Notes under the pieces: model-generated
Seen by the model: only the letters and a program-made list of their open reading frames with translations
What the model was told of the DNA's origin: nothing
Database searches by the model: none
Translations under genes and position numbers: made by a program
DNA from: a virus
Strand: one strand, 5' to 3'
DNA: 64,000 bases
Virus record (IMG/VR): IMGVR_UViG_3300032053_000003
Coordinates: 158,392-222,391 of that record
Shown: positions 4,718-50,918 of the stretch, in pieces
Layout of the letters: every line of letters starts with the position of its first letter
Position numbering within the stretch: the first letter of the stretch is position 1

Positions 4718-5854
4718 TTAATTAACTGTGAAGGTTCTACTATCACCTGTAGTATTCCAATTTTCAACGTCCATAATAATATTTGAAGTAGCAGGAGTGA
4801 ATGTGTATCCTGTTGCTTTTACAGTAATCGTATAACGTCCACTAGTTAATCCTGAGAAACTGTAGTTCCCACCAGCTATTGTGGTAGTAGTCAGAATAGC
4901 ATTATTGTTATCCAAACAAGTCAAAGTGACAGTTGCACCTACCAGTCCATTTCTTCCAGATCCTAGAGATGCCTCAGGGAAAAGTACAGCTCCGAGTAAA
5001 ATAGAAGGTAAAGGTGTAACAACAGGAGCTGGAGTTGCAACAGGAGTTGGATTAGGAGAGCCATGGAACTGTGTACCTGAGTCATCTCTACCTGTGATAT
5101 TTATCAGTACTATTGTAGGACGAGAGTAATTATCAACAGCCGAAAACCTGTACCCAGTCCTTGAAGCTGTTAAATAATAAGAACCATCTTCTACTGTGAA
5201 TTCAAAATGTCCATCAGTATCAGTGAGGGTTGTTCCTGTTACAGGAATACCTAAACTTGTTAATTTGTCACTTCCATCAGCACCTTTGGAGGCAATACCA
5301 GTCGTACCTGTCAATGTAATCGTAACCCCTGATATAGATCCTTGAACAATGTTAAGAGCTACATGGCTTCCTACCAATCCTGAAATCTTGTACTTACTTG
5401 TTGGTGTTGGGGTAGGTGATGGAGTGGAGGTGTCCCTGGCTGTAAAAGCAGAGGTAGCCACACTCTCATTACTGTCAACAGCAACAGAGGTACTGATAGG
5501 TGTGAAAGAGTAGTCATCCGATGATGGTGTTACTGTGTAAGTACCAGCTGTCAGACCTGAGAAAGAATACTCACCATTTTCATTTGTGGTCGTCTCAGCT
5601 TGACTTCCACTGAAGGCAACAGCTACTGCTGCACTGTGGGCAGAGGGCTTGGTTAAGGTAATGGTTACATCAGACAGGGGTTCCCCATTCTGTGTGAGGA
5701 CACCTGACACTGAGTATGTGATAGCAACAGGAGCAGGTGTGCTGGAACCGGAGTCACTGCTTCCATTGCTTCCACCTCCACCACAACCTGATAACAACAA
5801 ACTGATCAATAATACTACTGCTACAGTTAAATAATTTCTAAACTTTGTACTCAT
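4718..5854 (-). CDS. Lipoprotein with three carboxypeptidase-regulatory-like / Cna-B-like beta-sandwich repeats
   Basis: Signal peptide plus lipobox LLLSGC, then a Gly/Ser linker. Three repeats of the pattern GxTVTLT...NGxYSFSGLTxGxYTVT. AAGGAG SD, and the 35-bp motif lies upstream. Confidence 0.65.
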   Translation of the reverse strand: MSTKFRNYLTVAVVLLISLLLSGCGGGGSNGSSDSGSSTPAPVAITYSVSGVLTQNGEPLSDVTITLTKPSAHSAAVAVAFSGSQAETTTNENGEYSFSGLTAGTYTVTPSSDDYSFTPISTSVAVDSNESVATSAFTARDTSTPSPTPTPTSKYKISGLVGSHVALNIVQGSISGVTITLTGTTGIASKGADGSDKLTSLGIPVTGTTLTDTDGHFEFTVEDGSYYLTASRTGYRFSAVDNYSRPTIVLINITGRDDSGTQFHGSPNPTPVATPAPVVTPLPSILLGAVLFPEASLGSGRNGLVGATVTLTCLDNNNAILTTTTIAGGNYSFSGLTSGRYTITVKATGYTFTPATSNIIMDVENWNTTGDSRTFTVN

Positions 5855-7936: not shown

Positions 7937-8650
7937 TCAATCACGGTCCTTCTCCATACAATCAACCCAGGTACGTTGAGAGTTCACACAGAATAGGACA
8001 TGACCTATTTCAGATATCCTCATGGCTGCTCCATCTACCTTTTCAAACAGAGGACTGCCACCAAGGAGAGAGTGTTCATAAGAGAGGATATAACCGATAT
8101 CCCTACAATCTTTGAACCACAGTGGGTCCCTACGAGGTTCCTTGTCTCTCTGGATATTGTGGGCCGATCTTATGATGTCCCTGTACTTGGCTGATATCGG
8201 GAGGTAGGACAACTCTGAAGATCCCTTCATCCTTGTGCCACGAACATGTACAGCCTTTTTGAAAGCATCGTTTTCCAGGACAATGATATAATCCAGGTTC
8301 TGATCACAATACCCCATGAGTTTGGTGCCTTCCTTCTTGCAGGGGATGTACCATACATAGCTGTCCCCATTACCGTGACCACCCCTGTTCCTCTTGGTGT
8401 GACCGTGGGTCTTGAGGTAGTTATGGACATACTCTGCATCTTCCATCATTTTAGGCATGGCATGAACAAAGAAGTTTTGTATAACTTTACTGAGGAAATC
8501 AGTAAAGCTTTGCTGACTATACTCGTATGCTGCTATGAGACTGGCTATTGGATTCTGGGCATAGGATCTGTTATCTTTTGGAAAGTATTTTGTCATTATT
8601 GCAAGGAGTTCTTGAGTACAAAAGGTTGCTGCTGCTTCTATTTCTTTCAT
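7937..8650 (-). CDS. Hypothetical protein
   Basis: 237-aa ORF, translationally coupled to the Thg1-like gene through a 4-nt overlap. Confidence 0.5.
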   Translation of the reverse strand: MKEIEAAATFCTQELLAIMTKYFPKDNRSYAQNPIASLIAAYEYSQQSFTDFLSKVIQNFFVHAMPKMMEDAEYVHNYLKTHGHTKRNRGGHGNGDSYVWYIPCKKEGTKLMGYCDQNLDYIIVLENDAFKKAVHVRGTRMKGSSELSYLPISAKYRDIIRSAHNIQRDKEPRRDPLWFKDCRDIGYILSYEHSLLGGSPLFEKVDGAAMRISEIGHVLFCVNSQRTWVDCMEKDRD

Positions 8651-9534
8651 GACTTCTCCTTGAGTATTGTTTTAAATTGAAGTCTTAAGTAATTTTGGTC
8701 AACTACTAAAATTTTAGGCTCCTCTCCAAACAGGATGACCTCCACACGGTTCTGGACCTGTGTGATAGGAGGCATATCCAGGATCATCACATCTGTACGT
8801 TCTATCATCAGATCAGGGTTCTTCCTGGCATCATGCTTCTCAGGAAGCTTGTCCAGCTCATCAGTGGTAAATTTCCTGGAGGTCCTCCTCTTCTGAATGT
8901 AGGTGCCCCTCTTGAAAAATGCAGGGTAGTCATTCCAGTTTACACCCTTCTCATGAAGCATCTCCTGCATCTCACTGTTGCTCTTCTTATAGAGGACCTT
9001 GTGAGAGAAGTAATTTTGAGCAGCCATCTCTACACTGTTCCTGGTAGCATCTTTCTCTCTCCAGACAAACATGTTGGCAGCTTCCATCAAGGTAGGTACC
9101 TGCCATACCCTGCAGTCAAAAGCAGCTATTAGGGATGCTTTAGAGGGGATATACTCGGCTTTGTGGGTATTGAAGAAACCAGTAGCATAGGATGCAAGGA
9201 CACTGTTCATCTTCTGGACCTTACCATCAAAGAAGATCTTGCTTTTGTAGTCATTACTGTACCATACCAGGCTGATCTCGTCTGACTGACAGTACCCCAT
9301 GTTGGCCTGGGTTTCCTTCACTAGGTATTTGGCAGTCTGTCTCATGAGATCACAGAAGCCTCCGTCATAGGGACGTTTAAGACCCCTGCAGAAGGTATGG
9401 AAGGTCTTACCGTCTATACGACAACAAATAGGTAATAGAGGCAGAAATCTCTGACCTGCCTCAGCTTGTTCATATTCCTTCATACGTGTGTCTAAGGTAT
9501 CCATTTTTACTTTCATACGTAGTGACTCCCTCAA
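8647..9534 (-). CDS. Thg1-like protein (tRNA-His guanylyltransferase family 3'-5' nucleotidyltransferase)
   Basis: RIDGKTFHTF...KPYD, CQSDEISLV, FDCRVWQVP and VWREKDATRNS...AAQNYF align with Thg1 motifs (RIDGKKFH, GESDEYSF, FDSRCVAYP, SWRYVDTHINNLYNTTFW). Probable true start is MKVKMD behind GAGGGAG. Confidence 0.7.
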   Translation of the reverse strand: MRESLRMKVKMDTLDTRMKEYEQAEAGQRFLPLLPICCRIDGKTFHTFCRGLKRPYDGGFCDLMRQTAKYLVKETQANMGYCQSDEISLVWYSNDYKSKIFFDGKVQKMNSVLASYATGFFNTHKAEYIPSKASLIAAFDCRVWQVPTLMEAANMFVWREKDATRNSVEMAAQNYFSHKVLYKKSNSEMQEMLHEKGVNWNDYPAFFKRGTYIQKRRTSRKFTTDELDKLPEKHDARKNPDLMIERTDVMILDMPPITQVQNRVEVILFGEEPKILVVDQNYLRLQFKTILKEKS

Positions 9535-9587: not shown

Positions 9588-10013
9588 TTAGTATGTAAGA
9601 TCATCCATTTCAGAAGCAGCAACCTGGTCAGTGAAGGAGATGCTCTTATCATCTGCTGTCAGCTCAACAGGCTGTCCACAGGAACAAGTTATCTCAGGCA
9701 TCCAATCCACTCCGTAGAAGCTCTTTTTGTACCGACTTCCACTCTCTTCGATAAGATTGACATCTCCCTCATCAATGGAAAACTCGTGATCACCTTCTAC
9801 GTGACCTTTGATCTCAAACTCTTTCTCAAAGGTAAACGAGGCTTCCTTGATTTCATCACCACAGCATTCCGAATTTCTTACTATCCTGATCTCTCCTGTG
9901 ATGTTGAGGAAGACTTTGCCATTGTCCTCCCTGCTTTCTATCTCCATCTGCTGGACTTCTGGGTCTTGTAACTCCAGACCACAAAATTTGTTGCAACTAG
10001 GACACTTAGCCAT
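9588..10013 (-). CDS. Hypothetical acidic protein with terminal CxxC pairs
   Basis: MAKCPSCNKFC ... CSCGQP. AGGAG SD. Confidence 0.5.
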   Translation of the reverse strand: MAKCPSCNKFCGLELQDPEVQQMEIESREDNGKVFLNITGEIRIVRNSECCGDEIKEASFTFEKEFEIKGHVEGDHEFSIDEGDVNLIEESGSRYKKSFYGVDWMPEITCSCGQPVELTADDKSISFTDQVAASEMDDLTY

Positions 10014-10069: not shown

Positions 10070-10096
10070 GAGAAAAAGGGGCTTGCAAGCCCCTTG
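10070..10096 (-). terminator. Rho-independent terminator downstream of the RCC1/PASTA gene
   Basis: aggggcttgcaagcccct perfect GC-rich hairpin, followed on the minus strand by TTTTTCTCTT. Confidence 0.6.
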
Positions 10097-10103
10097 ATCC
10101 GTA

Positions 10104-11828
10104 TTATTTCATGTAGGTTACAACAACATCTTTTGAACCACGATTGATGACCTGCACATCAGCATTGACAACAGAGGTATAACCATTCTTGCCTTTGTAG
10201 ATCCAGACCTTACCAGCTTTGTTCAAATAGACAATTACCTTTCCATTGGAATCAGTAGTTGCCTGATAGAGGAAGGAACCGTCCTTATCTTTCAAGGTAA
10301 CAAGGACACCACTCAGAGGATGGTTTTCCTGATTCAGTACTATAATGGTTGCTACAACCTTGCTGGTATCAACAACAGGTGGAGCCACAACCACTGGGGG
10401 TTCAGGAATGACCACTGGTGGAGTCACAACCACTGGAGGTGTCACTATAGGAGTTACCACAACAGGTTCAGGAACCACTACCACTGTCACAGGGGGGACT
10501 ACAGGAGCCACTACTACAACAGGCTCAGGGGTCACTGGAGCAGGAGGAGTCACTATAGGCTCAGGGGTTACTACAGGGGTCACAACTGGCTCAGGAATGA
10601 CAGGAGCTACTGGAGCAACTGGCTCAGGCTCAGGTGTCACGATAGGCTCAAAAACAGGCTCAGGCTCTGGAACTGAAACTGGGGGAGTCTCTACAACTGG
10701 AGGAGTCACAACAGGCTCAGCACCAAGAGAGGTAACGAGAGTAACCTGAGTACCCTTGCTTACAGAAGTACCAGCAGCAGGGTCTTGGCTTATAACTGTA
10801 TTGACAGGAGCATCATTGTAATAGGAATCCCATGCACCCACTGTCAACTTTGAATTCACGATAGTCTGTTCAGCCACAGTATCAGAGAGGCTGACAACAT
10901 TCGGTACTGCAACCTTGTACTCATAGATACCGAGGTTCCAAAGTTCTACACCTTTGTAAGGAACAAAAGTGGTATTGCCACAAGCAACCACAGTACCATC
11001 AGCTTTCAATCCAACAGTGGTATCCTCCCCTGCTGAAACCTGGATAATGTTTGTCCAGCCACTCACGTTGCAGCATCCTTTAAAATTATAACCTACAGCA
11101 ACCACAGTCCCATCAGCTTTCAAGCCAACTGTATGACCAGCACCAGCTGAAACCTGGATAATGTCTGTCCAACTACTTACATTGTTCTGACCTTGTTCAT
11201 AGTCACCAGCAGCCACTACGGTACCATCGGCTTTCAAACCAATTATATGACAATAATATGCAGAGATCTGAGTAATGTCTGTCCAACTAGTTGCATCATG
11301 ACTATTATTACTATTGCCACCAGCAGCCACAACAGTCCCATCATTTTTCAGACCGAAAATGTCAGCTTCACCACTTGATATCTGTTTGATCCCTGTCCAA
11401 GTAAGTGCAGCATTCTGACCATAACCATAGTCTCCTACGATTACCAAGGTCCCATCATCTTTAAGTCCAATGGTATGATCACGCAGTGAGACTTCTATCT
11501 GGATAATGTGTGTCCAACCACTTACATTGCACTGACCTGCATTATTGTATCCAGTAGCTACCACTGTCCCATTGGCTTTCAGACCAGCTGTCACAAGGTA
11601 GTCAGCTGAAACCTGAATGATATCAGTCCAGGCACTTACATTAAGGTTACCTAAAGCAGAAGACCCAACTGCTACTACGGTACCATCCGTTTTGAGTCCT
11701 ACTGTAGAGATTTGTCCAGCGTCTATCTGGGGAGGGACTGCTGCAAAAGCAATGGGTGTCACCAAAAAAACCATTGCAAAAGCCAGGGCTAGAAACTTTA
11801 ATACGTTCACGAATGATAATTTCTTCAT
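10104..11828 (-). CDS. Secreted RCC1-like beta-propeller repeat protein with a PASTA-like domain, a Pro/Thr/Val-rich linker and a C-terminal beta-sandwich domain
   Basis: N-terminal signal peptide (MKKLSF...AFAAVPP). About 7 repeats of GLKxDGTVVAxG...W(T)xIIQVSAG. A PASTA-like segment (VVSLSDTVAEQ...VISQDPAAGTSVSKGTQVTLVTSLG). Roughly 130-aa PT-rich low-complexity linker. Confidence 0.65.
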   Translation of the reverse strand: MKKLSFVNVLKFLALAFAMVFLVTPIAFAAVPPQIDAGQISTVGLKTDGTVVAVGSSALGNLNVSAWTDIIQVSADYLVTAGLKANGTVVATGYNNAGQCNVSGWTHIIQIEVSLRDHTIGLKDDGTLVIVGDYGYGQNAALTWTGIKQISSGEADIFGLKNDGTVVAAGGNSNNSHDATSWTDITQISAYYCHIIGLKADGTVVAAGDYEQGQNNVSSWTDIIQVSAGAGHTVGLKADGTVVAVGYNFKGCCNVSGWTNIIQVSAGEDTTVGLKADGTVVACGNTTFVPYKGVELWNLGIYEYKVAVPNVVSLSDTVAEQTIVNSKLTVGAWDSYYNDAPVNTVISQDPAAGTSVSKGTQVTLVTSLGAEPVVTPPVVETPPVSVPEPEPVFEPIVTPEPEPVAPVAPVIPEPVVTPVVTPEPIVTPPAPVTPEPVVVVAPVVPPVTVVVVPEPVVVTPIVTPPVVVTPPVVIPEPPVVVAPPVVDTSKVVATIIVLNQENHPLSGVLVTLKDKDGSFLYQATTDSNGKVIVYLNKAGKVWIYKGKNGYTSVVNADVQVINRGSKDVVVTYMK

Positions 11829-12655: not shown

Positions 12656-13588
12656 TTATAAGGCAAGGCTGAGATCAGCCTTGTGCTCTTCGTGGATGAT
12701 GCCCTGCATATAATCAGCAGCTTTCTGAGCCTGGGCAGCAGCAAGGACTACCATCTTGGTGTCGGCTTTGATGGTCTTTTTCCAAGAGGCCACATATGCA
12801 GCATTGTTTTCAATAGTATTATTTTCAATACCAGTAATGGCACATAAGAAGGCAGCAGTCATCTCAGCAACCAGTTCTTCTTTGCCATAATCGTTGCTAC
12901 CGAAATAGTTCAGGAAGTTTGAACGATGCAGCCTGGACTCATGACCAGTGCTGTGAGCAGCTTCGTGGAACAGTACACAGTAATACTTTTCCATGCTGGT
13001 GAACTGGTCCTGGTCGGGCATGGTGATTGTATCAGGGTCAGGGGAATAGTAAGCCCTGTTAGAGCCATGGTTGATCTTAGGGCATGTGGCATAAAGAGAC
13101 ATGATGTGCTCACAAGCATTTATTGGAGAGAGATCCTTCACAGGGGACTCATCAACCTTGGCAGCAGGAGCCTCAATGCCATCACACTGTTCGATATTGA
13201 ATACTGAGAAGTACCTGAGCATAGGGACTGTCTTGAACTTGGCATTGCCATCTTTGTTCAGAGCAGGGGTACCATCAGCATTAACGGCTGCTTTGCTAAG
13301 GAACTTCCAGAAGATAACCAATGTGGATTTCTCACCCTTACGGACCTGTCCACCTTTTTCCTGGCACTGCTTGTAGGAGAGCCAGTAAGGAGAGGAGTAA
13401 CCCTTCTCTTCAGCAGTGGCAAGGAGCAACCAGGGGTTAATGCCACGATACGGTTTCTTGGTGATAAAATTATACTGAGAAAAGCCACCGTTTCCAACCT
13501 TGTGGGTCCAGGGACGGTTCCACGGAACAACACCCTTATCAAGTAGTTCGATGATTCTGTTAGTAACGATTTCGTAAACATTAGCCAT
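12656..13588 (-). CDS. ardC: ArdC-like antirestriction protein (N-terminal ssDNA-binding ArdC-N domain plus zincin-like metallopeptidase domain)
   Basis: LDKGVVPWNRPW (ArdC-N) and VLFHEAAHSTGH (HExxH). True start is ATG 13588 behind AAGGAG. The ORF track's GTG 13639 lies inside the promoter motif. Confidence 0.7.
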   Translation of the reverse strand: MANVYEIVTNRIIELLDKGVVPWNRPWTHKVGNGGFSQYNFITKKPYRGINPWLLLATAEEKGYSSPYWLSYKQCQEKGGQVRKGEKSTLVIFWKFLSKAAVNADGTPALNKDGNAKFKTVPMLRYFSVFNIEQCDGIEAPAAKVDESPVKDLSPINACEHIMSLYATCPKINHGSNRAYYSPDPDTITMPDQDQFTSMEKYYCVLFHEAAHSTGHESRLHRSNFLNYFGSNDYGKEELVAEMTAAFLCAITGIENNTIENNAAYVASWKKTIKADTKMVVLAAAQAQKAADYMQGIIHEEHKADLSLAL

Positions 13589-13621
13589 AGGGGTTAGCTC
13601 CTTATTGTTTTGTCTTTCTAT

Positions 13622-13656
13622 CCCTATAACGGTTTTCACCCCAGCAGTTTGTACAA
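13622..13656 (-). promoter_or_regulatory. Conserved 35-bp promoter-like motif, copy 3 (consensus)
   Basis: ccctataacggttttcaccccagcagtttgtacaa followed by ctattttgtttatttt. Confidence 0.55.
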
Positions 13657-15626: not shown

Positions 15627-16346
15627 TTAAGCTCCTTCTAAGGTATATATGAACACAGGAACACCCTTACGAATCAAGGTGTCATTGATGATGTATTCTA
15701 TCTTGTTCCAGTCTCCTCCAGCAAGGCCAGCTCCGAAACGAGGACCATGCACTGATGCACCCTCTTCAATAGCAAAATCTGCTACCTTATCCAAAGCCTC
15801 AGTAAGAGCAGAGTACACTATAGGCACCTTGTTGCTTTTGGTCTTGACTCCCTTCTGAGCTACCATATTGGCTATCCACATTGCCCTATCAACATGAATG
15901 AACTGAACATCTCCCAGCTCAAGATCATTACCTAAATAGACTATCTCTGGTTTCTTCCACTTCTCGGAGAGAGCCAGTACAAAACCTGCACCCCACTTTT
16001 TTTCATCGTTGCATATATGGGCAATGATTTTGGGACCCTCACCTTCAGGCTCTGTGGCATCACCTATGAGGTACTGAATTTTGACCTTCTCAGCCTCTTT
16101 GACCTCTTTGATCTCAGAGCAAGTGTAATGGTCAATAATGGTATTGACGTTATCTAGGGTGATGATCTTGTTTTCAAATAGGGTGTTGATAAGCTTTCCT
16201 AGCATCTCTCCAGCCTTGGTCAACTTAGTCTCCATGGCTTCTATTTTGCCCTCACTATAGGAGTTGCAATGGAAGGAATCCTCAACGATCTCCCTTAGTT
16301 CTTTGATGATTTCTAAACCCATTATATCCGTATATTTTACTTTCAC
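15627..16346 (-). CDS. Macro-domain (ADP-ribose binding/processing) protein with an unknown ~100-aa N-terminal domain
   Basis: C-terminal half IQYLIGDATEP...KIIAHICNDEKKWGAGFVLAL ... VHGPRFGAGLAGGDW fits the macro-domain pattern GDIT...IVNAAN..L.GGGGV...GxGxxG. Confidence 0.5.
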   Translation of the reverse strand: MKVKYTDIMGLEIIKELREIVEDSFHCNSYSEGKIEAMETKLTKAGEMLGKLINTLFENKIITLDNVNTIIDHYTCSEIKEVKEAEKVKIQYLIGDATEPEGEGPKIIAHICNDEKKWGAGFVLALSEKWKKPEIVYLGNDLELGDVQFIHVDRAMWIANMVAQKGVKTKSNKVPIVYSALTEALDKVADFAIEEGASVHGPRFGAGLAGGDWNKIEYIINDTLIRKGVPVFIYTLEGA

Positions 16347-17864: not shown

Positions 17865-18542
17865 TTAAAACCTACGACACTTCACTTGCCATACAGAATT
17901 GCTTTTCTCTTTGGTACAGAGTGATAATTTAGCCTGGGGATTCTTAAGAACCAGACCCTCATCTTCAGTGTTTCCAAGAGAGTTGTAGAGGGTCTCAAAT
18001 CCGATGTTATAGTTGTTGGCTATGGTGATATTATCTGAGATTACATCATACTGAGAATGGGACTCCTTCACCCTGAATAAGTTATGGAGAAGGTTGTACC
18101 TGTCAATATACTTGGTCCCTATAAGGTAATTATTGTTGGCTACAAGTAGATCATGGATGAACATGGTGTTCTTGATGTGCTTGGTCTTGCTGTGAAGCAG
18201 CTCAAAACAAAAGTAGTACCATCTGTCAGGAAGAGAGTAGAATGGGTCTAGGATCTCAGCAGGTGGGCTCCACTGCTTATGCTCTGTACCTTGCCTTGTC
18301 TTGAAGATGAATTTCTTATCAGGAGACACAGCCAGGATAGAACCTGTTCCATTCTTCTTAATCTGGGCCACATACCTCTTCTTCTCAAATACATTCAGGG
18401 TATCTGACCTAATGATGTTCTCAGGTCTTGGAGGGAAGAGGAATATGAAACCGTTGTACTTTATAGCTTTCATGCACAAGTTTCCGTGCCTGATCTTACT
18501 TTTAAAAGTTCGTTGCATACACAATCCCTTGCTACACAGCAT
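17865..18542 (-). CDS. Small ATP-dependent ligase-like nucleotidyltransferase (candidate RNA/DNA ligase)
   Basis: KKNG resembles motif I KxNG. EGLVLKNPQAK resembles motif V EGhhhK. Weak similarity only. Confidence 0.4.
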   Translation of the reverse strand: MLCSKGLCMQRTFKSKIRHGNLCMKAIKYNGFIFLFPPRPENIIRSDTLNVFEKKRYVAQIKKNGTGSILAVSPDKKFIFKTRQGTEHKQWSPPAEILDPFYSLPDRWYYFCFELLHSKTKHIKNTMFIHDLLVANNNYLIGTKYIDRYNLLHNLFRVKESHSQYDVISDNITIANNYNIGFETLYNSLGNTEDEGLVLKNPQAKLSLCTKEKSNSVWQVKCRRF

Positions 18543-49692: not shown

Positions 49693-50202
49693 TTAGTACT
49701 TAGGGTTTCTCATACTGGTAGGATTCTTCATAGGTCCACCAGGGTTCTTTACCTTTTTCTTTTCCTCCTGGATCTTCCCTTCCTTACCTCTTTTGACCAG
49801 AGCCACCTGATTCATTGGGAACCACTGCTCTTCAACAGGATGCCCTTCTTTATTGAGTTCTTTACTCTGAATGCCTATCCTTACACATCCGTTGATCCAG
49901 AACCCATGGCCTATTACAGAGCCTTTGAATGCACCTACTTTGTCCTTGACCTCATCACTGAGCTGAATATCTATCTCAGGGAATTCAGGAGCCTCAAGGT
50001 CTGTAGCCTCTATGAACTTGAGAGAGGTACCATCGAAGAAGACAGGCTCAATAGGTCTCCCTTCATGAAGCTCTCTGCTCCTCACTCCATACCTATCCTG
50101 ATTGTAAAGGTAGCGTAAGTGTACCACTATCACTCCTTTAAACTCCGTTATGACATCCTGTACAACATCTCCGAGTTTGAAATCATAGCTTTCATTATTC
50201 AT
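49693..50202 (-). CDS. Hypothetical protein
   Basis: 169-aa ORF. Confidence 0.5.
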   Translation of the reverse strand: MNNESYDFKLGDVVQDVITEFKGVIVVHLRYLYNQDRYGVRSRELHEGRPIEPVFFDGTSLKFIEATDLEAPEFPEIDIQLSDEVKDKVGAFKGSVIGHGFWINGCVRIGIQSKELNKEGHPVEEQWFPMNQVALVKRGKEGKIQEEKKKVKNPGGPMKNPTSMRNPKY

Positions 50203-50918
50203 ATATCCTCCTTTGGATACTCTTTTGGTCTTGATAACAAATTTGGTTTAAAATACACTTTGCAATTGGACTTACGTGCTGCAATGAGCAAATTCTCTAC
50301 CCAGATCCATTCTGGTTGTCCTGCTGGCATCTTGGTAGATCTGCTTCTTCCTCCAATGATAACCCAATCAAACATAGACAGGTTAGGTACTCCCATGTCT
50401 TCTTCTAGAGGCTCAAAGGAAACAAATTTGACAGGAGCTTTAATCTTCATGAAGATTTGTCTGGTAGAATCCAGTCTGTCTTTTACATCAATAGTGGCTC
50501 CTACCCATACATTCTCAGGGAAGACGAATTCAAGATATCTTTCTGGGTTTTTTGTAAGTAGCAAATAATTCCATTGTGGGGATTTGGCACATATACCTAA
50601 AACCCTATCGATCCATTTTTTAGGGACCCACTTACCAAACAGATCACCCATAGAACATACAAATACGTTCTTATCACTGAGACTGTTTATCTTCTTGGGT
50701 GGCTTGCTGTTAACAGGTGCATTCAGCCTATTAGCATGGAAGGTAGGTTTGAACCCTTGGGGGTAGAATCTGGCAGCTATGTCACGAGCATAGCAATAGG
50801 TACAGCCATGGTTACACCCTGTGACAGGATTCCAAGACCACCGTGCCCACTCAATCTTGGCTCCTTCCTTACCCTCATTACTTTCATTGAATACACTTGT
50901 TGACTTTGAAGCCATCAT
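50199..50918 (-). CDS. Phage Gp37/Gp68 (DUF5131) family protein, radical-SAM-like
   Basis: WSWNPVTGCNHGCTYCYARD, with a CxxxCxxC motif. Confidence 0.7.
   Translation of the reverse strand: MMASKSTSVFNESNEGKEGAKIEWARWSWNPVTGCNHGCTYCYARDIAARFYPQGFKPTFHANRLNAPVNSKPPKKINSLSDKNVFVCSMGDLFGKWVPKKWIDRVLGICAKSPQWNYLLLTKNPERYLEFVFPENVWVGATIDVKDRLDSTRQIFMKIKAPVKFVSFEPLEEDMGVPNLSMFDWVIIGGRSRSTKMPAGQPEWIWVENLLIAARKSNCKVYFKPNLLSRPKEYPKEDI

Follow-up and report, generated by a model that had tools for sequence, protein, structure and literature searches.

A stretch of 64,000 nucleotides from an uncultured virus (IMG/VR record IMGVR_UViG_3300032053_000003, positions 158,392 to 222,391; "the window" below means this whole stretch) carries at 8647..9516 on its minus strand the gene of a Thg1-like protein (TLP). 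We confirmed the product as an intact and conserved TLP of the bacterial type, encoded by a phage of around 231 kb that is hence a jumbo phage. To our knowledge, TLPs are the sole polymerases that make RNA in the 3'-5' direction. With slightly better than even confidence, and going by the features of the sequence described below, we propose that the phage enzyme performs templated 3'-5' nucleotide addition on 5'-shortened tRNAs, probably those of the host, during infection.

The first-pass annotation of this DNA had recognized a Thg1-like protein from the motifs RIDGKTFH, SDEISLV, FDCRVWQVP, and WREKDATRN...NYF, all of which are indeed present in the open reading frame (ORF), far beyond what chance would produce. 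Profile searches bore this assignment out: The protein aligns to positions 2-130 of the 130-position Pfam profile PF04446 (Thg1) with E=3.2e-29 and 101.9 bits, where the gathering score is 29.2, and it matches PHROG 4717 "tRNA-His guanylyltransferase" (E=5.5e-84), and its closest solved structure by sequence is the TLP of Bacillus thuringiensis (BtTLP; PDB 4KGK, E=1.2e-38). For the C-terminal domain of Thg1, which had also been proposed as a check, the Pfam Thg1C profile alone stayed under its threshold (18.5 versus 26.3 bits), but the structural model described below has the Thg1/TLP palm-domain fold, C-terminal part included. Read from the TTG at 9534, the ORF spans 8647..9534 (minus strand) and encodes 295 amino acids. 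The true start is most likely the ATG at 9516..9514 (M7 of the TTG-initiated ORF), which would give a protein of 289 amino acids, because a Shine-Dalgarno-like GGGAG (9526..9530, minus strand) ends 9 nucleotides ahead of this ATG and the gene called on the contig of around 231 kb has the same length of 289 amino acids; on direct reading, the TTG itself overlaps the GGGAG. At the other end of the gene, the TLP stop codon overlaps the ATG of the next ORF by 4 nucleotides (ATGA), and an AAGGAG lies within the 3' end of the TLP gene.

We transferred residue roles from the published description of BtTLP (PMC3701042) through a HMMER alignment to 4KGK and number the residues from the TTG. E22, R39, D41, S84, D85, E86, K108, R142, and R159 correspond to BtTLP E12, R28, D30, S74, D75, E76, K99, R131, and R147, respectively, and all nine are invariant in alignments of 14 (A1) and of 54 (A9) sequences. 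They include the catalytic Asp/Asp/Glu set on which the Thg1 identity also depended: D41 of the RIDG motif (codon 9412..9414, minus strand) is the first metal-binding Asp, while D85 and E86 of the SDE motif (codons 9277..9282, minus strand) are the second metal-binding Asp and the third carboxylate. The codons of these three residues were verified, and the carboxylates also match D29, D76, and E77 of the human enzyme. R39, K108, R142, and R159 are the basic residues that grip the incoming nucleoside triphosphate (NTP), with E22 and S84 in supporting roles. All active-site residues are kept in relatives of 74-89% identity, which argues that the gene is under purifying selection, and the intact active site suggests that the TLP is catalytically competent.

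Thg1 proteins add a non-templated guanylate at position -1 (G-1) opposite A73 and read the His anticodon, whereas TLPs add templated nucleotides on any tRNA (PMC6471195), and several features assign the phage enzyme to the latter type. The HINNLYN motif of eukaryotic Thg1, which contains the anticodon-reading His154 and the activation residue Asn161, is absent, so the protein should not be a true tRNA-His guanylyltransferase. Where Thg1 of Saccharomyces cerevisiae (5XOX) has DTHINNLYNTTFW, the query has DATRNSVEM, and the site of the Asn is occupied by Met170, as it is by M158 in BtTLP. The order of similarity to proteins of known structure runs in the same direction, from BtTLP (E=1.2e-38) over the archaeal MaTLP (2.5e-14) to Thg1 proteins (1.6e-11 to 3.1e-6). 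An AlphaFold model built with 54 homologues is of high confidence (predicted local distance difference test [pLDDT] 93.2, predicted template modeling score [pTM] 0.86), and in a Foldseek search with this model the top 32 PDB matches were all Thg1 or TLP structures, with BtTLP ranked over Thg1 (template modeling [TM] score 0.89-0.91, root-mean-square deviation 2.3-2.9 Å over about 260 columns). We conclude that the phage protein is a predicted template-dependent TLP of the bacterial type rather than a genuine tRNA-His guanylyltransferase, and that the database name "tRNA-His guanylyltransferase" for phage TLP genes is probably a misnomer.

The model also shows a long beta-hairpin arm whose tip is formed by a conserved segment, FTTDELDKLPEKHDARKNPDL (residues 222-242; 8809..8871, minus strand), in which L230, P231, H234, and A236 are invariant across the 14-sequence alignment. 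Two strands (residues 211-221 and 243-252) flank two short helices around this segment. The corresponding arm of the archaeal MaTLP touches the T-arm of the tRNA (PMC6471195), and by analogy the conserved tip may have a tRNA-contacting role in the phage enzyme as well.

We propose that the phage TLP would work as a stand-alone 3'-5' RNA polymerase. It would start either from a 5' triphosphate, used directly, or from a 5' phosphate that it first activates with ATP or GTP, and would then extend the RNA at its 5' end by Watson-Crick pairing against the 3' strand of the acceptor stem, which serves as the template. By restoring missing tRNA 5' nucleotides in infection, the enzyme would keep tRNAs available for phage translation. 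It would probably act on host tRNAs, since no tRNA gene was found in the window or within 10 kb past either of its ends (81 kb of phage read). The activity, the use of tRNA as substrate in vivo, and the benefit to the phage are what we infer, and they agree with what is known of the family: BtTLP is a biochemically characterized tRNA 5'-end repair enzyme, and every tested TLP favors the repair of 5'-truncated tRNAs over G-1 addition, regardless of tRNA identity (PMC6471195).

Several points weigh against this proposal. The lysine that serves ATP activation in BtTLP, K43, is Arg54 in the phage protein, and this Arg is nearly invariant across the subfamily. We found no assay of a phage TLP in the literature, and the 2019 review of the family, as we read it, has no established cellular role for bacterial TLPs (PMC6471195). 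We also know of no source of 5'-truncated tRNAs in infection, and the defence tRNases that we checked cut elsewhere. Among the sequence and proteins scanned in the window, there is no tRNA, Pnkp, RtcB, RNA ligase, or CCA-adding enzyme, and none of the scanned window proteins adjoining the TLP is an RNA-end healing or sealing enzyme. Linkage to tRNA genes across viral TLP loci is likewise of limited help when set against a control of 75 loci that are anchored on NAMPT, an unrelated accessory gene, and are devoid of TLPs. A tRNA gene lies within 10 kb of the TLP at 29 of 80 loci (at least five at 12 of them and up to 28 at one locus), but this is not specific to TLPs because 21 of the 75 control loci have a tRNA within the same distance (p=0.31) and 9 of the 75 have at least five (p=0.64). 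We therefore rejected the idea that TLP genes are specifically embedded in tRNA arrays; only immediate adjacency is nominally significant, with a tRNA within 300 bp at 6 of 72 TLP loci versus 0 of 75 controls (p=0.012) and within 1 kb at 8 of 72 versus 1 of 75 (p=0.016). This tight linkage is weak, consisting of 6 to 8 loci judged at several thresholds against a single control family with phylogenetically non-independent contigs. The most recurrent neighbor of viral TLPs is an RNA ligase (PF09414), found on the same strand and on either side at 10 of 72 loci and abutting or overlapping the longest TLP ORF at three of them, but this association is not significant either (5 of 75 control loci within 10 kb; p=0.18).

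One way to supply the enzyme with substrates would be that phage TLPs answer a form of damage that has not been described, in which the first nucleotides are removed from the 5' strand of the acceptor stem by some host defence or by phage-induced RNA turnover. The tight tRNA linkage (6/72 versus 0/75) and the occasional fusion-like adjacency of an RNA ligase fit this scenario without establishing it, and we consider it rather unlikely.

TLPs are by no means new to phages. Using tblastn, we found relatives in 162 records of isolated phages, mostly large or jumbo phages, with hosts including Bacillus (44 records), Prevotella (15), Caulobacter (13), Mycobacterium (11), and Brevundimonas (7). Many of these copies are annotated as "tRNA-His guanylyltransferase" or "putative Thg1", e.g., gp319 of Pseudomonas phage 201phi2-1 at 51% identity. 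A scan of IMG/VR gave at least 568 confirmed viral contigs with a TLP, and 2,902 relatives at E<=1e-20 are present in a large protein database. The genome paper of Bacillus phage Bc431v3 flagged a putative tRNA-His guanylyltransferase as unusual in 2013 and noted that it may modify phage or host tRNAs (PMC3601020), and Iyer and colleagues placed Thg1 in 2021 among the RNA-repair enzymes of jumbo phages that restore 5' nucleotides, occurring "sporadically" (PMC7824862). The family is thus already known and annotated in phages, and the idea of an RNA-repair countermeasure in jumbo phages dates from that 2021 work.

The nearest relatives of the window TLP (74-89% identity) sit on short metagenomic contigs. 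TLPs from bacterial chromosomes (Myxococcota, Ca. Vecturithrix, a 7.3-Mb contig, GCA_964580585) are 58-63% identical and hence closer than those of isolated phages (51-53%). In a rough neighbor-joining tree, which carries no support values, the window TLP and a few phage-like metagenomic contigs fall into a clade with named bacterial TLPs, while 56 of 58 IMG/VR copies lie outside this clade. This pattern suggests repeated exchange of TLPs between bacteria and phages.

The first-pass annotation had also raised the question of whether neighboring genes are conserved in related phages. We therefore compared 85 viral TLP loci by all-against-all clustering of their ORFs and scanned 150 immediately flanking genes of 76 non-redundant loci with Pfam. 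No neighbor family occurs at more than 10 of the 85 loci (around 13% at most), and no Pfam family is found more than three times among the immediate flanks, so that a conserved operon partner was rejected. The TLP gene appears to behave as a stand-alone accessory gene, and the lack of an obligatory partner among these loci fits an enzyme that would work alone, like the characterized TLPs.

Some other features recur among these loci. Genes of NAD salvage lie within 10 kb of viral TLPs in the form of NAMPT at seven loci and NAPRTase at six, and NUDIX genes at nine (e.g., L014, L045, L061, L077-L079, L011, L027, and L028); conversely, 5 of 80 NAMPT-anchored loci hold a TLP, so that TLP and NAD-salvage genes seem to share accessory regions. 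tRNAs with a CUA anticodon (amber suppressors, which ARAGORN labels tRNA-Pyl) stand beside the TLP in L027 (7429..7503), L028 (10942..11016), and L071 (16202..16276) and may point to a reassigned TAG stop codon in these phages; an RNA ligase and a NAPRTase also adjoin the TLP in L027 and L028. Across the 187 tRNAs near viral TLPs, the acceptor stem has mismatches at pairs 1, 2, and 3 in six, two, and one cases, respectively, and five of the six pair-1 mismatches belong to tRNA-Met with a normal initiator-type 1:72 pair. These nine mismatches at pairs 1-3 are no commoner than those at pairs 4-7, and we therefore rejected 5' editing of phage tRNAs in the style of amoebal mitochondria.

Among the other explanations for the TLP, the strongest is that it acts as a tRNA-His G-1 enzyme, adding or restoring a 5' guanylate templated by C73 on tRNA-His of host or phage. 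This is the function implied by the database name, and we regard it as possible but unlikely. In vitro, bacterial TLPs can place G-1 opposite C73, and BtTLP allows a yeast thg1 deletion strain to grow (PMC6471195); at one locus (L022), the gene immediately upstream of the TLP is a phage tRNA-His gene. Five tRNA-His genes, four of them distinct, were found near viral TLPs, and three of the four distinct ones have C73, but all five encode G at position -1 as bacterial genes do. Post-transcriptional addition is thus not required for these tRNAs, and we rejected the idea that the TLP is needed for a phage tRNA-His without an encoded G-1. The missing HINNLYN anticodon-recognition motif and the preference of all tested TLPs for repair over G-1 addition speak in the same direction, as does the fact that the 81 kb of phage read contain no tRNA-His gene. 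Furthermore, of the 162 phage records with a TLP, at least 20 are of phages infecting Caulobacter (13) or Brevundimonas (7), and Caulobacter tRNA-His lacks G-1 altogether (PMC3064791).

Alternatively, the TLP could act on base-paired RNAs other than tRNAs, such as small RNAs of phage or host, rRNA, or primers, with a recognition looser than that of Thg1. TLPs are independent of the tRNA-His anticodon, and BtTLP accepts an external oligonucleotide as template (PMC6471195); in addition, 51 of 80 viral TLP loci have no tRNA gene within 10 kb, and the window has neither a tRNA nor a match to any Rfam family. The same Rfam result cuts the other way, however, as it leaves no structured RNA family near the TLP gene as a candidate substrate, and the conserved beta-hairpin arm, being the element with which MaTLP touches the tRNA T-arm, points to tRNA-shaped substrates. 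We consider this explanation distinctly unlikely.

The suggestion made in the first-pass annotation that the gene counters known tRNA-cleaving defences (PrrC, RloC, colicin-like nucleases, retron effectors, or PARIS) fared worse, and we now hold it to be very unlikely. PrrC and RloC cut the anticodon loop. For the other systems checked, the literature places the cuts of PARIS and Cas13 in anticodon stems or loops, those of type I-A retrons in D-loops, and those of prokaryotic Schlafen proteins in T-loops, while retron Eco2 nicks the acceptor stem 6-7 nucleotides from the 3' CCA. A TLP needs a shortened 5' strand together with an intact 3' strand and can neither seal a nick nor rebuild a loop, so that cuts in loops, the anticodon stem, or the 3' acceptor strand leave no substrate for it. 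Repair of a loop break instead needs end healing and ligation, for which Pnkp, RtcB, and RNA ligase are all missing among the scanned window proteins, and the literature that we checked yielded no defence that shortens tRNAs from the 5' end. On the other hand, phages do counter tRNA-targeting immunity, as exemplified by Pnkp and Rnl1 of T4 and by phage tRNAs that evade retron Eco7 and PARIS (PMC11555353). Some viral contigs have the TLP among genes of counter-defence type (NAMPT/NAPRT NAD salvage, NUDIX, and RNA ligase), and Thg1 has been listed with the RNA-repair genes of jumbo phages (PMC7824862). Membership of the TLP in a known defence system was rejected because the protein has no PADLOC match.

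Finally, the gene could be a recently acquired passenger with no role in infection, given its place in a mosaic accessory region where flanking genes vary between close relatives and the greater similarity of bacterial chromosomal TLPs than of isolated-phage TLPs, but this is highly improbable in view of the intact functional residues, the retention of the TLP at 64-89% identity in several related, otherwise rearranged phage contigs, the spread of the family over at least 568 viral contigs, and the good ribosome-binding site and translational coupling to the next gene.

Among 50,697 records of isolated phages, none matches the window closely at the DNA level. Identical proteins place the window at roughly 82.5-146.5 kb of a metagenomic contig of 230,776 bp (ENA ERZ27247916, k141_351042), of which a version of 237,444 bp also exists; the 81 kb read for tRNA genes cover positions 74.3-155.6 kb of this contig. 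The window comprises a replication and accessory region of the phage with an NAD-dependent DNA ligase, a split family-A polymerase, a DnaB-like helicase, and an SbcC-like protein, as well as a UvsX-like recombinase, other helicases, an ArdC-like protein, and a protein with a sigma-70 region 4 domain.

Two co-oriented genes border the TLP gene and had been described as co-transcribed with it. Both exist on the same strand, and the downstream one overlaps the TLP stop as described above, but neither is a conserved partner, and the idea that they cooperate functionally with the TLP is unsupported. The upstream gene (9588..10013, minus strand) encodes a protein of 141 amino acids with a zinc-ribbon-like pattern of conserved cysteines (CxxC, CC, and CxC); its acidic C-terminal tail looks invariant (D-x-V-A-A-S-x-M-D-E-L). 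The protein matches nothing in Pfam, PHROG, or PADLOC and belongs to a large, uncharacterized family of 548 representative clusters. A 76% identical copy lies upstream of the TLP in four related contigs (L003-L006; TLPs 87% identical) that also share the RCC1/PASTA gene described below, whereas homologues elsewhere in viral contigs have no TLP nearby; no functional link to the TLP was seen. The downstream gene (7937..8650, minus strand; 237 amino acids) is a near-orphan with only three clusters among 5.8 billion proteins, is absent from the relatives L003-L009, and is replaced by unrelated genes in close relatives. Its sole distant homologue, on a related phage contig of 246.8 kb (L094, 10019..10710), has no TLP within 10 kb. 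This homologue matches in two overlapping pieces with 57% and 75% identity, which suggests that it is frameshifted or split, and a PARP-domain gene lies 1.5 kb downstream of it.

Farther upstream, a consensus scan picked up a terminator-like hairpin by pattern match only (10076..10095, minus strand; 8 bp with five G-C pairs, followed by a T-rich tail), which comes after the RCC1/PASTA gene and may be the upstream edge of the TLP's transcription unit. The RCC1/PASTA gene itself (10104..11828, minus strand) encodes a hydrophobic N-terminus, six RCC1 repeats, a PASTA domain, a long Pro/Val-rich linker, and a carboxypeptidase-regulatory-like domain, and its product is probably secreted; a second protein with CarboxypepD_reg-type domains is encoded at 4718..5854.

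The first-pass annotation had pointed to a ligase-like gene and a macro-domain gene in the same block. The former (17865..18542, minus strand) does encode a ligase-type adenylation domain, which looks like that of a DNA ligase and not of an RNA ligase. From an internal Met start at about 18473 (M24), its protein has 202 amino acids and consists of the nucleotidyltransferase (adenylation) domain only, with the KxNG lysine motif and conserved motif residues but no OB domain, which makes it shorter than the minimal Lig E chain (256 residues) among its fold matches. The high-confidence model (pLDDT 97.3) matches adenylation domains of ATP-dependent DNA ligases (TM score 0.65-0.72), so that a role as RNA ligase is unsupported and no RNA-repair kit is evident in the window. 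The family comprises around 76 protein clusters, mostly on large phage contigs, and the window also encodes a full NAD-dependent ligase (27791..29671). The macro-domain gene (15627..16346, minus strand) is real: Residues 87-236 of its product match PDB 5e3b (E=6.5e-44) and BT1257 (E=5.6e-39), preceded by an N-terminal extension of around 85 amino acids. The protein has a weak DarG-like PADLOC match and is 43% identical in a related contig (L007), and it might serve to undo ADP-ribosylation by a host defence; the TLP gene is 6 kb away, with nothing to link the two. In L007, whose TLP is 64% identical, the ligase-like gene, the macro-domain gene, the TLP gene, and a PHROG 4687 gene follow the order of the window but are separated by different genes, which on the evidence of gene order is backbone synteny of the phage lineage and not an operon.

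Other genes of the window deserve a brief mention. A protein of 892 amino acids (30581..33259, minus strand) matches the shoulder domain of major vault protein (PF11978; 72.3 bits versus a cutoff of 25, E=4.4e-20) and the vault repeat PF17795 (34.7 versus 28.8) but no PHROG; a gene resembling that of a vault protein is unusual in a jumbo phage. The ArdC-like anti-restriction protein (12656..13639, minus strand) combines an ArdC N-terminal domain with a zincin-like metallopeptidase domain (each E of around 1e-37), and in the related contigs L003 and L005 its gene occupies another place with respect to the TLP. Furthermore, the window encodes a DUF5131 protein (50199..50918, minus strand; E=1.6e-43) and a small calcineurin-like phosphoesterase (29726..30286, minus strand) adjoining the NAD-dependent ligase.

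The copy in the window alone adds little. It is a typical, intact member of its family, has no special partner genes, and comes from a jumbo phage that is uncultured. Phage TLPs as a whole are abundant, and they occur in genomes that are open to single-gene deletion and tRNA-end sequencing, such as those of 201phi2-1, Caulobacter jumbo phages, and Bacillus phages, which offers a practical route to the role of these enzymes. If TLPs did answer the undescribed 5' damage considered above, this would be the first case of 3'-5' polymerization in the arms race of phages and their hosts and would give a physiological function to bacterial TLPs.

Of the known systems, BtTLP (PDB 4KGK/4KGM) is the closest to the phage enzyme, with the same three carboxylates, the NTP-contacting Arg and Lys residues, and a Met in place of the Thg1 Asn. 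It differs in that the query is phage-encoded and around 45 residues longer, with an "LPxKHxARxNP" segment at the hairpin tip, a lineage-specific C-terminal helix, and Arg54 in place of Lys43. The eukaryotic Thg1 proteins (S. cerevisiae, human, and Candida albicans) have the palm-domain fold and two-metal active site in common with the query, which is set apart from them by the lack of HINNLYN and of an N161 equivalent and by a far weaker similarity (E=1e-11 to 3e-6). The phage TLPs of PHROG 4717 (201phi2-1 gp319, Bacillus phage Bc431v3 gp143, and Caulobacter phage CcrColossus) are of the same family, with 38-53% identity over around 90% of the length; they come mostly from large or jumbo phages and were annotated by homology alone, and their neighboring genes differ from those in the window. 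In the editing system of amoebal mitochondria, represented by Dictyostelium TLP3, a TLP resynthesizes up to three nucleotides (1-3) at the start of the acceptor stem off the 3' strand (PMC6471195), but that system answers 5' mismatches encoded in the tRNA genes, of which tRNAs adjacent to viral TLPs show few. With Pnkp and Rnl1 of T4, which counter PrrC, the proposed function has in common that a phage enzyme mends damaged tRNAs to let translation go on; whereas the T4 enzymes heal and reseal a break in the anticodon loop, the TLP would polymerize onto a shortened 5' end.

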